A stretch of 21,760 nucleotides of DNA from a virus. The DNA is taken from the IMG/VR virus record IMGVR_UViG_3300015242_000001, one strand, 5' to 3'. Shown piece after piece: positions 5,940 through 21,760 of the stretch. Under the pieces are notes generated by a model that had not been told where the DNA came from, did no database searches, and saw only the letters and a list, made by a program, of their open reading frames with translations. Each line of letters opens with the position of its first letter. Within the stretch, counting starts at the first letter, position 1. Position numbers and translations under genes: made by a program.

Positions 5940-6281
5940 ATGGGATGGGATGCATATGCAGTAGGGTATGTAGAAACTTTACATCAAAAGGATTTCGATA
6001 AAGCTATAAAGAGAATTCTCAGGAAGGGCCAGTATGCAGATGCTGGGTTAACTCAAGGTTACTTGGACTGTACACCTTGCGCCAAAGCAATGGAGGAAAT
6101 AACAGGGGTTACATCTTATGGGGAAGGTTACTCCCATCAATCGCTACTTTATATAGAAGATAAGATAAACCGTGCTAAACACGAACCTGACTCAGAAGTA
6201 GAACTTTGGGCTTTTTATAGTGCTCAAGAATTTCTGAAAATTTGTATTAAACATAAACTAGGTATTAAATTCTCATGGTAA
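5940..6281 (+). CDS. Hypothetical phage protein
   Basis: ORF track; tight packing. Confidence 0.75.
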   Translation: MGWDAYAVGYVETLHQKDFDKAIKRILRKGQYADAGLTQGYLDCTPCAKAMEEITGVTSYGEGYSHQSLLYIEDKINRAKHEPDSEVELWAFYSAQEFLKICIKHKLGIKFSW

Positions 6282-6520
6282 TGAATAATAAAACAAAACA
6301 TATACTATTATTTAGTTCAATCCTCTTAGTTCTGGTGTTGTTTATAACGGGACTTTGTATTGACCTACTTCTAACTGGAAAGATATTTCTTTGTATAGCT
6401 GGGGCAATTGTAGCAGGTATTATTATAGTATATATATGGCTTGAAACAGAAATGATGATATACGGGTCTTCCATAGAGACAGTAATTGATAAATCCAAAG
6501 AAGAAAATAAATGCAAGTAG
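6281..6520 (+). CDS. Small two-TM membrane protein
   Basis: Two hydrophobic segments; TAATG coupling favours start at 6281 over 6275. Confidence 0.7.
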   Translation: MNNKTKHILLFSSILLVLVLFITGLCIDLLLTGKIFLCIAGAIVAGIIIVYIWLETEMMIYGSSIETVIDKSKEENKCK

Positions 6521-6783
6521 GATCGTTAGTATTATGTGTAGATGTACTTAATTGCAAGCACGGAGAAGAAGCACCCATTAAAGAAAGTATTTATACAATT
6601 AGAGAAATTTTAAAGGTTTATGGGCAGGAAGCCGTTAGACTCGAAGAAATAATAAATGCTCCTCAATTTTATTTATTAACTGGTTATGCAGAAATAGCAT
6701 TTCGTATAGAGCATTTCAAAGAACTCCAACCTCCTATAGAGATAGATATAGAATATTTAATTAAAGAACCTTTGAGTATATGA
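6511..6783 (+). CDS. Hypothetical phage protein
   Basis: ORF track; overlapping start. Confidence 0.75.
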   Translation: MQVGSLVLCVDVLNCKHGEEAPIKESIYTIREILKVYGQEAVRLEEIINAPQFYLLTGYAEIAFRIEHFKELQPPIEIDIEYLIKEPLSI

Positions 6784-7052
6784 CACCACAAGAAATAATA
6801 GCAGAATACATGAATCATTCGCTTTCTCAAGTGCATCTTTACCATAGCTGCTGGAATAGTTTAATGGAAGTAATCAAAAAACTAAATGAAACTACTTTGT
6901 TTGGATTATTTCCAAAGCTCCATTACATGGACAATACATCAAGGTTAAATTATGCTCTATCAAGAGCAGACATCGAGACAGCTTACAATGAAGTGATTAA
7001 TATTATTACAGCATCAAACAAACGGAAAAAGGATGAAAAAATATCAAACTAA
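6780..7052 (+). CDS. Hypothetical phage protein
   Basis: ORF track; ATGA overlap. Confidence 0.7.
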   Translation: MTPQEIIAEYMNHSLSQVHLYHSCWNSLMEVIKKLNETTLFGLFPKLHYMDNTSRLNYALSRADIETAYNEVINIITASNKRKKDEKISN

Positions 7053-7302
7053 ATTCCCTGAACAAGTAGAAGCAGTTCAATTGACAACTTCAAATTACAA
7101 GGAAGTAATCGATTGGACAGAGAAAGAATGCATTGTACATTATCAGGATGCTGGGAATATGGATTTAATGGGCATTACTGTAATAGATGGAAATACTCAC
7201 TGGCCGTTATTTTTAGGTATGTACATTTCAAAACATAAAGGGGGTGAGGTTTGTAACTATACAGAGGAAGGTTTTAAAAAGACTTGGGAGGAAATAATAT
7301 AA
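7033..7302 (+). CDS. Phage protein of the K.Y..KP..VEAVQ...F.KT(W/Y)E type
   Basis: Terminal motifs typical of a common uncharacterised phage family. Confidence 0.7.
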   Translation: MKKYQTKFPEQVEAVQLTTSNYKEVIDWTEKECIVHYQDAGNMDLMGITVIDGNTHWPLFLGMYISKHKGGEVCNYTEEGFKKTWEEII

Positions 7303-7304
7303 AA

Positions 7305-7577
7305 ATGACGAAGATTGAACTAGTAGGGTTGACAGTAACAGACCTCCAGAATTTATTGGATAATGCCGTTTCTAAGGCAATAGAAAGGTACAAAGAGGAA
7401 CAAAGGACCCCTTCAGATTGGGAGGAATTGACATTAGATCAAGCAGCTCAAGAACTACATTGCTGCAAAGCCACCATACGCCGAAAAATGATTCAGCTTA
7501 ATATCCAAGGAGCCAAAACAGGAAAGGAGATATTGATTCAACGTAAAGACTTAAAAAAAATCAAGAAGGCTTCTTGA
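7305..7577 (+). CDS. Excisionase-like HTH protein (MerR/HTH_17-like)
   Basis: LTLDQAAQELHCCKATIRRK..GKEILI motif; convergent with and overlapping the integrase by 17 bp; ATG at 7305 preferred to TTG at 7284. Confidence 0.8.
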   Translation: MTKIELVGLTVTDLQNLLDNAVSKAIERYKEEQRTPSDWEELTLDQAAQELHCCKATIRRKMIQLNIQGAKTGKEILIQRKDLKKIKKAS

Positions 7578-8730
7578 AAAAGGGGCTTTCTAACATCATA
7601 TTTGCCGCCTCCTGTTTACCAATCTTTATATACTTAAAAAATTCTTTTTCTGATTTGTGACCAGTAATCTTCATGATCGCTTTTACCGGAAAGCCCTGCA
7701 AGTACATAATAGTAGCAAATGTCCTCCTGGCAGTGTGAGCGCTTACAAGATCATATTTAGCCCAGTATTCTGCCTGTCTTCTCCCTCCTTTGGTAATAGA
7801 TATCAAATGCTGTTCAGTAATCCCAGCCATTTCACAGATATCAGGCAGGTGATAATTTAACCCCTCTGCCGTGGAATATACTGGTAACACCCCATTATAT
7901 TTTGTATAAATAGCATCGGCCATCCAGTGAACTGGGATAACAACCTTCTCCCCGGTTTTCTCTGTAAGAACTTCGAATTTATCACCAACACGCTTATACA
8001 GGTTGATCCGTCCCAGATCTTCAGCTCTAAGAGCAACCCAGCACCCGAATACAAAAACATCCCTTGCCCGACCTTTAGCGCCACTCAATGGTAAATTGTA
8101 AACAGCGGTCAATTCTTCGATAGTAAGCGCCACAGTATCTGATTCCTCCCATGAATACTTAAATTCTGGATTCTCAAAAACTTTGTTCTTATGTTTCTTG
8201 GCATCGTACATTTTAACCAGGAAAGCACTGAGTCTGGCAACTACCTCTGCAATCGAATTTCGGCTATAGTCCTTTTTTATCAGCCACTTCAATAAATTAC
8301 GATAATCTTCAATATTAAATCGATATGAGAACTTAAAGGCGGAGGCTGCCTCATAATTCTGCAACTTCTTGAGGACACTTTCGTAATTTTTGGCTGAAGC
8401 CTCACTGAACCGATTTCCATCCTTCTTTTTTAACAATTTCCCAGATCTCATATCAGCAACCATTTGCCCCCAATCTGATATAAAATCCGAAACATCCTTT
8501 TTGACTTTTGCCAAGTGCTCATTCAGGTGTTCTGTTAGCTCTGGTTTTAAGACTGGCTGATCTTGGATTTTTGCATTGGCAACATATTGCGTTATTAGAC
8601 GCTTGATTTTGTCAAGTCTAAGTATGTCGCCCTTTTCTTTAGATCCAACTTTTATTTTTGTAGGATACCGCAGACGACCATCTTGGCAGTAAAACGAGGC
8701 AAGTAAATAACCATTGGCTTTAATAAACAT
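7561..8730 (-). CDS. int: Tyrosine recombinase (phage integrase)
   Basis: Complete catalytic set: ALRAED (R), TEKTG (K), HTARRTFAT (HxxR), ITGHKS (H), FFKYI (Y). Confidence 0.95.
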   Translation of the reverse strand: MFIKANGYLLASFYCQDGRLRYPTKIKVGSKEKGDILRLDKIKRLITQYVANAKIQDQPVLKPELTEHLNEHLAKVKKDVSDFISDWGQMVADMRSGKLLKKKDGNRFSEASAKNYESVLKKLQNYEAASAFKFSYRFNIEDYRNLLKWLIKKDYSRNSIAEVVARLSAFLVKMYDAKKHKNKVFENPEFKYSWEESDTVALTIEELTAVYNLPLSGAKGRARDVFVFGCWVALRAEDLGRINLYKRVGDKFEVLTEKTGEKVVIPVHWMADAIYTKYNGVLPVYSTAEGLNYHLPDICEMAGITEQHLISITKGGRRQAEYWAKYDLVSAHTARRTFATIMYLQGFPVKAIMKITGHKSEKEFFKYIKIGKQEAANMMLESPFFKKPS

Positions 8731-8736
8731 AAACAG

Positions 8737-8784
8737 AGTATGTCTAAAAGTATGTCTAAAAGTATGTCTAAAAGTATGTCTAAA
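8737..8784. repeat. 4 perfect tandem copies of AGTATGTCTAAA (candidate integrase arm-type sites)
   Basis: Copies start at 8737, 8749, 8761 and 8773; core TATGTCT recurs at 8979 and 8991. Confidence 0.9.
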
Positions 8785-8788
8785 AAAG

Positions 8789-8796
8789 TAAAGTTA
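8789..8796 (-). promoter_or_regulatory. Candidate int promoter -7 variant TAACTTTA
   Basis: Same motif as 17153-17160; lies just upstream of the repeats. Confidence 0.45.
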
Positions 8797-9052
8797 AGTG
8801 AATTTATGTAGAATGAAGTAAAAATAAAAATTAGCTGAAACGCAGTGGTAATGGGGTATTCTTGATTTTAATCAATTTATCTTTTATCCTGAATTACATA
8901 TCTCGGACCAACGCCGGTGGAACAAAATTTCATCAAACCACTGTACAGTGCTCAATTCTGAGACGAAGTTATGATTTTTATGTCTTTTTTTATGTCTCCG
9001 TTTAGTTCAGGTCGCTTCGGTTATAAGACAAATATACTATCTTTCTATACTA

Positions 9053-9469
9053 TCATTTCACAAAATACTCGACTCCCAGCGCATACCCTTTCATGCCTAA
9101 GCCGCAGATACTGCCTACGCATTTAGGCGCTATCATGGAAATATGCCGGAAATCTTCCCGTGCATATACGTTGCTGATATGGATCTCCAGCACCGGCGTT
9201 TTGATAGCTGCGATCGCATCCCTGATCGCTACGGATGTATGGGTATAACCTCCGGCGTTCAGCAGGATACCGTCTACGGTAAATCCTTCCTGGTGCAGGT
9301 AATTGATGATCTCCCCCTCCACATTGCTCTGGAAATAGCTGAAGCGTACAGCGGGGTACTGTGCCTGTAGGGTAGCAAAATATGCCTCAAAGGACTCGCT
9401 GCCGTAAATACCGGGCTCCCGCTTGCCCAGCAGATTCAGATTAGGGCCGTTGATGATAACGATGTACAT
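9053..9469 (-). CDS. aroQ: Type II 3-dehydroquinate dehydratase
   Basis: NGPNLNLLGKREPGIYG, QSNVEG, NAGGYTHTSVAIRDA and EIHISNVYAREDFRH motifs. Confidence 0.97.
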   Translation of the reverse strand: MYIVIINGPNLNLLGKREPGIYGSESFEAYFATLQAQYPAVRFSYFQSNVEGEIINYLHQEGFTVDGILLNAGGYTHTSVAIRDAIAAIKTPVLEIHISNVYAREDFRHISMIAPKCVGSICGLGMKGYALGVEYFVK

Positions 9470-9474
9470 AGATA

Positions 9475-10038
9475 TTATTTATTTCCCCATCTGTAAGTAT
9501 GCTGCTCAATTCCTACCAAGTCCAGTACACGGTCTATTACGGTAGCAGCTACCGCCTCCAAGGTGGTTGGCTTGCTGTAGAAGGAGGGAGTGGCTGGACA
9601 GATGATCCCACCAGCTTCTGTAACAGTGAGCATATTGTGCAGGTGTATCAGGTTATAAGGTGTTTCTCTTACCATACAGATCAGCTTTCTGCGCTCTTTC
9701 AGCATTACATCCGCAGCACGGGTGATCAAGTCATTAGAAACGCCAGTAGCAATACGACCCAGGGTGCCCATGGAGCAGGGACAGATGATCATGGTATTGA
9801 ACTGTCCGGACCCGCTGGCAAAAGGTGCATAAAAATCCTGCTGCGTATAGAATTTGAATGGCAGCTCCGTATAACTTTTATCCGTCAGCTCTGTTTCCCA
9901 TACCGTTTTGGCATTCTCCGTCATCACCACAGCCACGGTATCTACCTGGGATACCGCTGCACTCAGTTTGTTCAGCAGTTGTCTGGCATATATGGAACCA
10001 CTAGCGCCTGTAATAGCCACTACTATACGATACTTCAT
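9475..10038 (-). CDS. ubiX: UbiX-family flavin prenyltransferase
   Basis: ITGASGSIY, ASGS, PCSMGTL, RAADVMLKERRKL, RETPY and PSFYSKP motifs. Confidence 0.96.
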   Translation of the reverse strand: MKYRIVVAITGASGSIYARQLLNKLSAAVSQVDTVAVVMTENAKTVWETELTDKSYTELPFKFYTQQDFYAPFASGSGQFNTMIICPCSMGTLGRIATGVSNDLITRAADVMLKERRKLICMVRETPYNLIHLHNMLTVTEAGGIICPATPSFYSKPTTLEAVAATVIDRVLDLVGIEQHTYRWGNK

Positions 10039-15220: not shown

Positions 15221-15300
15221 CAAAGATAATACTATTTTCTTGATTTCTAATAATATTTATTAGTTTTATTTGGAAATCTCAATTGTTTGTCATACATTTG
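15221..15300. promoter_or_regulatory. Divergent promoters: TATCTTTG (minus, 15221-15228) and TTTG-N20-TACATTTG (plus, 15269-15300)
   Basis: Exact Bacteroidota consensus matches at the strand switch. Confidence 0.7.
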
Positions 15301-15304
15301 TCAT

Positions 15305-15680
15305 GTAAAAGAAAATCTTCCCCCACTTCACGCCCTCTGTTAGCTGGGAGCAATTCCAGGGTTGATGAGGATTCGTAGTAAAGTCGAGTGTGCGGAGATA
15401 CCTTAAAGCGATTTAAGGTTCATAAATATCAATTGGGTGCTGTATCCGCGTCGCAATGTTCGGAAACCAACTACAGCCTTAGAATTACCTCAGCCGTCCC
15501 TAGTGGATTGTAGAATAAGGGAGAGAAACCGTATTCGTTGGGGGAAGGTGCCTTTAAAGTTTTTTATGATAATTTTACCTAAACTCTTTTTTAGCGGGTG
15601 GAGCACACCTTCTAACCGAAGGTACGTCTACTTAGTACTTAAGTATCCACGCCTCCGGCTGTATGTGAATATCTGAATAG
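15305..15680 (+). ncRNA. Candidate large structured ncRNA or leader RNA
   Basis: Own promoter; closing helix CTTCCCCCA(15317)/TGGGGGAAG(15539); CTGGGA-GCAA-TTCCAG and ACCTTAAA-GCGA-TTTAAGGT hairpins; nested helices; 3' three-way junction at 15598-15650. Confidence 0.65.
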
Positions 15681-15723
15681 ATATATTATACTAGAACGAT
15701 TTTACAGAAACATAGTAACTGTT

Positions 15724-16110
15724 ATGTACATAGATAAAAAGAACACAAATACTACTTTAGTTGAAGATTACTTAGAACTGCATAAGGAATGCACTGATAT
15801 AACAAAAAACTATTACAATTATGTTGTAAAAACACAAGCTACTCAGAAATTAGGAGTGTATTTACCAAAACTATCCACTATTGAAACATACGATGAACTT
15901 ATCAAATATGTAGAGGAAATGTATGTACATGGTATGATATTAGGAGATGAGTTTGTGATGAAACCAACAGATGAACAAAGAATTAAAATAGAAAATTCCA
16001 TACCTAAAAATAGATTTTTTCCTGAAGGTATTATGCATATGTGGAATATTGTTGATCATAAATTGAAAATTATATACGCTTCATTTGGTGTTAAAATAAT
16101 TATAAAATGA
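15724..16110 (+). CDS. Hypothetical phage protein
   Basis: ORF track. Confidence 0.7.
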   Translation: MYIDKKNTNTTLVEDYLELHKECTDITKNYYNYVVKTQATQKLGVYLPKLSTIETYDELIKYVEEMYVHGMILGDEFVMKPTDEQRIKIENSIPKNRFFPEGIMHMWNIVDHKLKIIYASFGVKIIIK

Positions 16111-17060: not shown

Positions 17061-17088
17061 GCCAACTCTTATCTAGGAGTTGGTTTTT
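17061..17088 (+). terminator. Intrinsic terminator
   Basis: GCCAACTCTT-atct-AGGAGTTGGT followed by a T run. Confidence 0.8.
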
Positions 17089-17128
17089 ACATTATATAGC
17101 TAACTATAATAAGATTGATTAGTTTATA

Positions 17129-19124: not shown

Positions 19125-19401
19125 TTTCATTACCTATGAAATTGACTGGCTCGATAGGAAGTTCAAAGAATTACAAAAATATGTTGACGATAGACCCTTC
19201 GATAAGTTAAAAGATAGAACTGACTCAGTAGGTAAAGTTATTTCTAAAATAGAAGATCAAATTAGAACCCTAAAAGATATTCTTAAAGATCTTCCATCTA
19301 TGCTCGAAGCATTAAATAACCTAAGAGAGAAAGAAGAAAAGAAGTTAGGGCCAATTAGAGGAGATCAAGCATTGTCCCCATTTGAGTCAGGAGATATTTA
19401 A
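19108..19401 (+). CDS. Helical protein coupled to terL, candidate terminase small subunit
   Basis: TAATG coupling to terL; coiled-coil character; function assigned by position only. Confidence 0.55.
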   Translation: MAKKNNFITYEIDWLDRKFKELQKYVDDRPFDKLKDRTDSVGKVISKIEDQIRTLKDILKDLPSMLEALNNLREKEEKKLGPIRGDQALSPFESGDI

Positions 19402-21760
19402 TGAATCATTACACTCAAGATACTGTCAATATATTTTTCCCAGATCAAGAAGAACCCATCTATGATCCGACAGATCCTATTTCAGATTATCAGTTCAAGG
19501 AATATTGGAAAAGAGAAAGAGATCGGTGTATAAATGGTTTCCATATAGCAGATGGTCAGGTATATATCCCAGGAGAATTATACAACCATTGTGTTTATTG
19601 GAAAATAGCTGCTTATATAGATAATCCAATCTCTGGAAGAAAAAGTCGTAAAATTATAACCCCCATTCTTAGAGATATTGAATGGATGATTTTTAAGGAT
19701 GTAGATACTTGTAGAAGAGATGGTAAGTTTTATAATTTAGTTGGGTCCAGGGATTTCGGAAAAGCCTTAATAAATAGTGCTACACTATATACAACAACGG
19801 GAGAAATAGAAATAGGAAATTCTAAAGTAGGAGATCAAATATATGGTGCTGATGGTAAGCTGACTACTATTACAGGTGTGTATCCTCAAGGCAGTATTGA
19901 TATTTTTAAAATCACTCTCAACGATGGAAGAGTATTGTATTGCTGTGATAATCATATTTGGAAAGTTTGGAATTCAAGAAAAAAGAAATACGAAAATTTA
20001 CCCTTAAATATAATAAGAAAAGATTACCTGCTTCCAAAAAAAGTTTCCTATAAAAATAGAAAAGGCATAGAATATAAATATGCAATACCTAATAATGAGG
20101 CAGTAGAATACAATGACAATGATACAACTCCAATAGATCCTTACTTTCTAGGATTGTGGTTGGGAGATGGTGATAATAGGTATATAAGAATTACAACTGT
20201 TGATCGTGAAATAAAACAATATGTTGAAAAATATGCTGGTTTAAATAACCTTTTAGTTAAAGATTCTGGAAAATATGGGTATAGAATAACTTCTGGTACA
20301 GTCGGCACAAGAAAATATAGAAGAAACCACGTATACACAAAATTCAAAGATTTACAATTAATTCAAAATAAACATATACCAAGTGCTTATTTCTATACAT
20401 CTATTGAAAATAGAATGAACTTATTGAGAGGGTTGATGGATACAGACGGAAGCTGTTCAAAAGACGGAACTGTGGAATTCAGTACATCAAATGTAAAATT
20501 AGCAAAGGATTTTTATAGACTGGTAAGAAGTTTAGGAATAATAGCTACTTGTAAAAAGAGAAAATCAGGTTACAAGAAAAATGGTATTTACATACAAACA
20601 AAAGATTCATATAGATTTACTTTACTTACAGATAAATTGATATTTAAATTAGAGAGGAAACTAAAAAACATTAAGAGCCATAGATCAGAGCGAGTTTCAA
20701 TAGTATCAATAGAAAGTTATGGTAAAGAAAACGCAACTTGTATAACTGTTGATAACAAGGATCAATTATTTTTAACTGACAACTATACAGTTACCCATAA
20801 CTCGATAATAGCTGCTTCATTAGCAGGACACAATTATTCCTTTTTTGATAATTCAGAGTCTGTAATATCAGGGGGGGAATCTTCCTACATAAAACTTGCT
20901 ACAAATAAAATAGAAGACGGGTTAACCAATTATCATCCAGTATTCAAAAAGAATAGGATTTCCTCCGATTGGAAAAAGGAAGTAAGAGCTGGTTGGAAAG
21001 ATAAATCTTCTAATCAACCCAGTGATAAATCCTCCAACTCTGCAATAATTGTCCGAAACTATGAGATGGGGACTAAAACCATGGCCGCAAATGGTACACG
21101 TCCTGGATTTCACCTGATTGATGAAATTGGAACCATCCCCAATCTTATAGGTTGTGTGAAAGATAGTGATGGATGTTGGTGGTCTGGCGGCGGGGATAAG
21201 CCTTCATGCCTTGTAATGCTGGCAGGAACAGGAGGGGACATGGAAGTAGGTCAAGAGGCTGCTGATATATTTTATGCTCCAGATGTATACAATATGTTAG
21301 CATTTGAAGATACTTGGGAAACAGGTAAAAAAATAGGCAGGTTTATTCCTGCTACAATGGCAAAAATGGCTTTTAAAGAGCCAATGAGATTATCTGATTA
21401 TTTGGGGATTGATCATCCAGATCTAGATAAAATTACCATACTGGTATCAAATGAAGAAAAGGCATTTAAAGAATGGTGGGAACCTACTCATGCGAAAGCT
21501 AAAAAAGGTGGAGCAAAAACGCTTACAAAATTCTTAGCTTATTGGCCGTTAAAACCCTCAGATAGTTTCCTTATAATTCAAGCTAATAACTTTAATATAC
21601 ATGCAGCTAGATTTCAACAATCTAGATTGAAGGAAAATAATATAACAGGTTCTTCTGTAGAAATAATAAATGATGGAGAAAAGTTAATACACAAATTCAT
21701 AAATAAACAACCGGTATCCGAATTCCCTATAAAATCAACAGAAAGAGATGGTTGTGTAGT
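19401..21760 (+). CDS. terL: Terminase large subunit (crAss-like), intein-containing, 3' partial
   Basis: Manual translation: YWKRERDRCING, Walker A GSRDFGK|S, Walker B FHLIDEIG, coupling motif GTGGD; open to the window end. Confidence 0.92.
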   Translation, partial: MNHYTQDTVNIFFPDQEEPIYDPTDPISDYQFKEYWKRERDRCINGFHIADGQVYIPGELYNHCVYWKIAAYIDNPISGRKSRKIITPILRDIEWMIFKDVDTCRRDGKFYNLVGSRDFGKALINSATLYTTTGEIEIGNSKVGDQIYGADGKLTTITGVYPQGSIDIFKITLNDGRVLYCCDNHIWKVWNSRKKKYENLPLNIIRKDYLLPKKVSYKNRKGIEYKYAIPNNEAVEYNDNDTTPIDPYFLGLWLGDGDNRYIRITTVDREIKQYVEKYAGLNNLLVKDSGKYGYRITSGTVGTRKYRRNHVYTKFKDLQLIQNKHIPSAYFYTSIENRMNLLRGLMDTDGSCSKDGTVEFSTSNVKLAKDFYRLVRSLGIIATCKKRKSGYKKNGIYIQTKDSYRFTLLTDKLIFKLERKLKNIKSHRSERVSIVSIESYGKENATCITVDNKDQLFLTDNYTVTHNSIIAASLAGHNYSFFDNSESVISGGESSYIKLATNKIEDGLTNYHPVFKKNRISSDWKKEVRAGWKDKSSNQPSDKSSNSAIIVRNYEMGTKTMAANGTRPGFHLIDEIGTIPNLIGCVKDSDGCWWSGGGDKPSCLVMLAGTGGDMEVGQEAADIFYAPDVYNMLAFEDTWETGKKIGRFIPATMAKMAFKEPMRLSDYLGIDHPDLDKITILVSNEEKAFKEWWEPTHAKAKKGGAKTLTKFLAYWPLKPSDSFLIIQANNFNIHAARFQQSRLKENNITGSSVEIINDGEKLIHKFINKQPVSEFPIKSTERDGCV
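19764..20801 (+). mobile_element. Class 3 intein with LAGLIDADG homing endonuclease, 346 aa
   Basis: Starts GK|ALINS and ends VTHN|S; block B HIW, block F TCITV, block G THN; PYFLGLWLGDG and LLRGLMDTDG motifs. Confidence 0.93.

Follow-up and report, generated by a model that had tools for sequence, protein, structure and literature searches.

The window (the whole stretch of DNA that was analyzed, 21,760 nucleotides) is part of a 43.6-kb virus record that is about 35% complete. Small genes form one leftward and one rightward array, and the 521-nt gap between them harbors a GC-rich element (43.6% GC vs. 34.0% for the window) whose position coincides with the minimum of the cumulative GC skew. 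The terminase genes follow about 3.7 kb downstream of the element on the same strand, with the large terminase (19401-21758) containing a LAGLIDADG intein, and a relative with the same gene order as the window encodes a crAss-type capsid protein. Positions 7284-10038 are occupied by a Xis-like HTH gene and a tyrosine integrase, followed by a host-like aroQ (dehydroquinase II) and a UbiX-like flavoprotein gene; the aroQ/UbiX-like stretch has about 50% GC with phage genes on both sides, and short tandem repeats are located just upstream of the integrase in the window and in the relative L089. Since the same gene order is found in L089 (852-3623), an independent relative, this arrangement is not a one-off assembly error.

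The promoter, the RNA with its helices, the downstream gene and the terminator described below are all located on the plus strand. A promoter of the Bacteroidota sigma-ABfr type was identified at 15269-15300 (-33 box TTTG, 15269-72; -7 box TAnnTTTG, 15293-300), and its -7 box lies 25-27 nt 5' of the first helix of the element, P1a, in 10 of 10 homologues. With the promoter consensus and the box-to-start spacing described for Bacteroidota (PMC6847099), the transcription start is predicted at about 15305. A preliminary description of this DNA had reported a consensus promoter at this position; the promoter itself was confirmed, but it is of the Bacteroidota -33/-7 type, and a scan for sigma-70 promoters revealed no enrichment. 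Because of the promoter type, we infer that the host is a member of the Bacteroidota.

Homologues were searched with the neighboring proteins as queries, and the contigs of the matches were then fetched. The element was found in nine other crAss-like phages, at the same spot as in the window: eight relatives gave nhmmer matches with E < 1e-69, and L089 was added separately as the ninth. The conserved core spans 15305-15625 (about 320 nt) and measures 277-369 nt across the homologues from P1a to the end of the pseudoknot. The ten sequences, all from uncultured phages, fall into three deep lineages only (the window with L089, L003 with L004, and L007 with L075-L079). BLAST against cultured phages gave nothing useful, protein-guided scans of viral and genome contigs yielded no additional RNA-bearing loci, and exact-pattern scans of viral, metagenome and genome collections returned chance matches or none, so that sampling of the family is probably incomplete. 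When applied to 11 more distant crAss-like records (several of them fragments), phi14:2 and Lbo-JY46, the RNA model scored at most 13.8 bits, compared with 144-248 bits for members.

Between the window and L089 the core differs at only 3 of 321 nt (0.9%), namely by one A-U to G-U change, one change from GNRA to GNRA and one change at the 3' edge, whereas divergence elsewhere amounts to 13.1% at four-fold degenerate sites, 16% in the 3' spacer and 12% at the start of the next gene. An ORF of 79 amino acids (15437-15676) overlaps the core. It is open only in the window and its close relative L089, while stops or frame changes interrupt it in the eight distant homologues, and it was rejected as a gene. 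What the homologues conserve are helices, not this reading frame. A '7-residue gene' annotated by JGI over the L076 homologue is a spurious antisense call with a stop after 7 codons.

A hand-curated model of 15 helices with 68 pairs was derived from RNAalifold and an exhaustive helix scan. It consists of a long GYAA-capped hairpin, an insertion-tolerant hairpin, a multibranched core and one long-range pseudoknot. Domain 1 (15318-15396) is a long irregular hairpin, P1a-d, in which 15318-36 pairs with 15368-96 around a C-C mismatch that is invariant across the homologues; its tip is formed by P2 (15344-59) with a GYAA tetraloop. In the unfitted MAFFT alignment 5 of the 6 P2 pairs are compensatory, and none of 500 shuffles reached as many paired P2 cells. 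The adjacent hairpin P3 (15400-15419) folds on itself in every homologue, carries a GNRA cap in the window and varies between 18 and 112 nt in the homologues, a behavior reminiscent of the expansion segments of large globular RNAs. L089 differs by one change in the P3 stem, which produces a G-U pair, and its loop is still GNRA. Domain 3 (15420-15569) begins with the outer stem P4 (15420-25/15564-69) and with P5 (15433-37/15551-55), which is weak in the window (3 of 5 pairs), and both lead into a three-way junction. One arm of the junction is formed by P6/P7 (15439-77) with a conserved 3' bulge ARCNAA, the other by P8 (15489-93/15538-42), which bears P9 as well as P10 with its A-rich loop of 7-8 nt (15521-28). 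A long-range helix (15543-48 with 15608-13), connected by a U-rich linker, is either a pseudoknot or part of an alternative fold; all 6 pairs are present in all ten sequences, with one compensatory position only. Its 5' strand stands between P8 and P5, and the 3' strand of P8 can be drawn into an extended form of the helix. Conservation across the homologues also includes the unpaired loops and joiners. Between the core and the start codon of the next gene lies a variable region (15616-15700; 16% divergent from L089) with predicted hairpins that can form in all homologues and in several of them close about 8 nt before the ATG, the pairing register being provisional.

Across the ten sequences 657 of 680 cells (96.6%) are paired and 32 of the 68 pairs show compensatory double changes, counts that refer to helices hand-picked on the same sequences and to three deep lineages only. 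In 1000 runs of a tree-aware null without pairing constraint, 70.6% of the cells were paired on average (maximum 80.7%), with a mean of 7.7 compensatory pairs (maximum 17). In unfitted MAFFT alignments the observed pairing was reached by 0 of 500 shuffles, and slid controls gave 27-53%. As a held-out test, a covariance model was built from eight other phages with the window left out; it matched the window over its full length at 42.6 bits (best background 10.8), whereas the same alignment without structure gave a partial match of 25.8 bits that missed the first 40 positions. The non-Watson-Crick cells comprise 18 of G-U type and a single C-A, and this excess of 18 to 1 points to selection on the plus-strand RNA. 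For the single sequence the folding signal is not significant (MFE z-score -0.57), and in each of the ten sequences the consensus fold lies 4-14 kcal/mol above the MFE. Two hairpins of at least 6 bp were found in the single sequence where 0.05 are expected (p ~0.001), and these are the two GNRA hairpins. Since only they beat chance in the single sequence, the case rests on the homologues. Taken together, it is close to certain that the RNA is real and structured.

The inverted repeat, GNRA hairpins and nested 5-mers on which the preliminary description had based its fold were all located in the sequence, but the fold itself, in which a 9-bp helix encloses nested pairings and is followed by a separate second domain, was refuted by comparison with the homologues. 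The two GNRA hairpins (15344-59 and 15400-19) did hold, with 5-6 of 6 and 5 of 5 pairs kept in the eight distant homologues. The perfect 9-bp repeat (15317-25/15539-47) is present, but as a closing helix it retains only 2-3 of 9 pairs in these homologues; such a repeat also occurs in 20% of dinucleotide shuffles, and the conserved model assigns its 5' strand to pairing within P1 and its 3' strand to P8 and the pseudoknot. Of the four nested 5-mer pairings, three are down to 1-2 of 5 pairs in the eight distant homologues; the remaining one has 2 of 5 pairs in seven homologues and 4 of 5 in the eighth. Nor does the single sequence hold an excess of 5-bp repeats (85 vs. 77). The supposed second domain likewise dissolved, as its hairpin (15607-23) is not conserved and the 5' strand of this hairpin pairs with 15543-48.

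The first gene after the RNA encodes an orphan protein of 128 amino acids (15724-16110). In each of the ten RNA-bearing loci it holds this place, 94-115 nt beyond the pseudoknot; none of the fetched loci that lack the RNA contains it. This linkage may reflect plain shared ancestry, as the loci were reached via neighboring genes of one phage group. Among 1.84 billion representatives only six clusters matched the protein at E < 1e-30; no Pfam, PHROG or fold match was obtained, with nothing above noise in the fold searches, and the structural model is weak (pLDDT 64) and shows no known RNA-binding fold. No terminator or processing site was found between the RNA and the orphan ORF, and release as a separate RNA is a proposal only. 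An intrinsic terminator right after P4 was considered and rejected, as only weak, AU-rich and lineage-specific stems are found there. Further downstream, an intrinsic-terminator-like hairpin (17061-17088) precedes the conserved packaging block, and all 10 relatives examined have a similar hairpin with a U-tract at the equivalent position. Together with the orphan gene and some variable small genes, the RNA therefore looks like a separate short transcription unit.

Several further elements were observed around this terminator and in related phages. Within 17061-17100 the terminator is followed by an 11-nt motif, exact or near-exact in all ten relatives, and then by a promoter-like site, whose -7 box is perfect in L003 and L004 only; an operator or part of a late promoter may lie here. 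An extra GC-richer hairpin stretch immediately upstream of this terminator was seen on the minus strand of L075 (345-725), L076 (5274-5500), L077 (4700-4962) and L078 (4908-5166); its sequence is common to at least L075, L077 and L078, and it is possibly another small RNA. In the RNA-less relative L012 the region preceding the packaging block is taken up by a tRNA cluster (6075-7400). Eleven crAss-like relatives without the large RNA contain a different GC-rich element, unrelated to it, which measures about 80 nt and shows H-type-pseudoknot-like pairings (L008 6043-6134, L009 2225-2312, L010 3504-3592, L013 4400-4488, L014 2339-2417, L015 4751-4831, L016 3494-3574, L017 7342-7439, L020 882-962, L021 5646-5741, L073 5307-5386). 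Where checked, it sits at the main strand switch; the L013 copy has no Rfam match, and a weak look-alike (E 0.04) is present in the window at 1865-1969, in a 1.1-kb gene-free gap at the first strand switch.

The RNA was compared with known classes. For the window and the nine homologous loci, Rfam 15 contained nothing near the gathering threshold, and among its ribozyme and intron families no match was obtained at E up to 10. The absence of tRNA, tmRNA, RNase P and group II domain V signatures noted in the preliminary description was borne out: ARAGORN detected no tRNA or tmRNA in the window or eight homologous loci, Rfam gave no match for these or for RNase P RNA, whose P4 pseudoknot motifs are absent from the alignment, and no domain V (RF00029) was found at E up to 1, with positive controls, in the contig, which represents 35% of the genome. 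The RNA resembles a group I core or group II domain I in its stem-internal loop-stem arrangement, multiway junction, ARC-containing bulge and junction-to-3' pseudoknot, but differs from both in lacking their catalytic elements (domain V; G-binding P7). A GUGCG at 15390 that recalls the group II 5' GUGYG, conserved immediately ahead of stem I(i), belongs to the paired 3' strand of P1 and differs in the homologues, and the ARC bulge conserved in P7 does not covary with a 5' pentamer. This bulge may resemble the epsilon-prime motif of group IIB introns (domain Ic), which we take as a lead only. Inspection of the consensus for a group I core revealed neither a bulged-A G-C site nor a P7 G-binding site; instead of a flush P4/P6 there is an 11-12-nt joiner between the arms, and P4 occupies the place of P8, which in group I introns directly follows P3. 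Flanking exons of either intron type are lacking. The initial resemblances to RNase P, group I, group II and cobalamin motifs did not hold up when tested.

Among phage RNAs, ROOL and GOLLD (PMC12286853) are likewise large, covarying, pseudoknot-containing and of unknown function. In contrast to these, the RNA described here is about half as long or less, has one pseudoknot only and matches no Rfam model; its core of 277-369 nt falls short of the length of more than about 500 nt that characterizes ROOL, GOLLD and OLE, and no tRNA genes were found nearby in the loci scanned. The crAss-like phage phi14:2 produces two abundant long non-coding RNAs of unknown function (bioRxiv 10.1101/2020.03.07.982082). 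These come from the same virus group and are also long and intergenic (g004-g006 gaps), but they are early-oriented, while the RNA described here lies behind a host-type promoter on the strand of the packaging genes, and the RNA model found no match in the phi14:2 genome. The ncRNA of the UG27 reverse transcriptase, described from Crassvirales and other gut phages (PMC9226505), is a predicted structured RNA as well; it forms three long stem-loops beside the RT gene, whereas the present fold is multibranched and lacks the adjacent RT expected of UG27 and retron ncRNAs (PF00078 is absent from the contig, 35% of the genome, and no RT is among the called neighbors of the homologues). Type III toxin-antitoxin systems such as toxIN share the layout of promoter, RNA and small protein gene, but no tandem repeats, no terminator before the ORF and no Pfam match to ToxN, CptN or TenpN were found. 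Compared by length only, the whole RNA exceeds the short viral candidate RNAs catalogued in PMC10690425 (models of 29-151 nt), although a single domain of it could be listed there. Because all testable defining features failed, the RNA is a member of none of the classes compared, being of the same general kind as ROOL/GOLLD and the phi14:2 RNAs. With no Rfam match for the element, with homologues that conserve the helices and not the ORF of 79 amino acids, and with the plus strand favored, the earlier suggestion of an undescribed structured phage ncRNA is supported. The large structured RNA thus represents a genuine family that is not yet catalogued and occurs in a narrow set of crAss-like phages.

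Homology, covarying fold, strand, promoter consensus and gene linkage are all evident from the sequences. For transcription, tertiary folding and function we tentatively favor a reading in which the folded RNA works together with the orphan protein, although we would put it at somewhat less than an even chance. Host RNA polymerase would start at about 15305 and generate a short transcript that covers the RNA, the orphan gene plus some variable small genes and ends at the terminator at 17061. Covariation shows its first 320 or so bases folding into three domains and a pseudoknot. The folded RNA itself would be what functions, forming a compact and stable particle whose tertiary contacts may involve the GYAA loop, the A-rich P10 loop and the P7 bulge. 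It would associate with the orphan protein expressed alongside it, and together they might act in trans at a middle or late stage of infection, for instance by engaging a host factor as a decoy or scaffold. This reading is favored because of the size of the RNA, its conserved unpaired motifs, the expansion-segment behavior and the lack of an expression platform; the orphan gene in 10 of 10 loci, the 0.9% core divergence and the phi14:2 precedent also count for it, whereas the lack of a site separating RNA and ORF, the weak protein model and a consensus fold above the MFE count against it. That the 300-nt pseudoknotted RNA, alone or with the orphan protein, constitutes a novel phage ribonucleoprotein or ribozyme with a catalytic or anti-host function for which no precedent is known is unlikely.

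The main rival, which is possible though doubtful and remains close to the favored reading, is a cis-acting 5' leader that switches between the P4/P5/P8 fold and a long 3' hairpin upon sensing a ligand or a protein, which might be the orphan protein itself (autoregulation), and so tunes the downstream genes; in a variant, the leader would modify RNA polymerase to read through the terminator at 17061, like put RNAs. The RNA always lies between the promoter and the same gene at a spacing of 94-115 nt, a competing 3' hairpin of -7 to -17.5 kcal/mol is possible in all ten sequences, the hairpins close near the start codon, where structure tunes initiation in Bacteroidota (PMC6847099), and a conserved terminator follows downstream. 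A leader is less readily reconciled with the lack of an internal terminator or clear expression platform, with an alternative hairpin that amounts to U-rich versus purine-rich pairing in a register differing between lineages, with the apparent promoter-like site of the packaging block itself and with the absence of the RNA from relatives whose terminase is closer. A new or intron-derived ribozyme that processes its own transcript, for instance a reduced group II domain I or a group I-like core, would fit the size, GNRA loop, multiway junctions and junction-to-3' pseudoknot, but is improbable given that the contig (35% of the genome) contains neither domain V nor a reverse transcriptase, that a group I G-binding P7 and flush P4/P6 are missing, and that neither flanking exons nor an Rfam ribozyme or intron match at E up to 10 were found.

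Two other explanations can be given very little weight. A packaging RNA resembling phi29 pRNA would fit the location of the RNA, which precedes the terminase genes by about 3.7 kb and shares their strand. However, a terminator separates the RNA from the packaging block, the deepest split among the terminases (31-36% identity to that of the window) has RNA-bearing phages on either side, and RNA-less phages have terminases 55-68% identical to that of the window. The distribution of the RNA hence departs from the terminase tree, and this speaks against a packaging role. The terminases of the RNA-bearing phages form two deep groups (82% vs. 31-36% identity to that of the window), which suggests exchange of the motor gene among these phages, and a single origin of the RNA may be compatible with the starred branches of the tree. 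Equally improbable is a DNA-level element at the strand switch, such as an origin or a single-stranded hairpin signal, or chance hairpins in and around a small ORF. The minimum of cumulative GC skew, the non-significant single-sequence z-score and the ORF of 79 amino acids being open in L089 would be in line with it, but strand-specific G-U pairs, GNRA loops, a promoter directly upstream, 32 compensatory pairs and the interruption of the ORF by stops or frame changes in the eight distant homologues are not.

Large, strongly covarying RNAs are rare in bacteria and phages, and several of them proved to be ribozymes or RNA assemblies. The family described here has a narrow distribution, in ten uncultured phages, and adds a fold that is absent from Rfam. 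Its ends are defined, a promoter is predicted and a partner protein proposed, and of its ten natural variants one, with a core of 277 nt, suits probing and cryo-EM. The family thereby provides a handle on the role of long non-coding RNAs in crAss-like phages.
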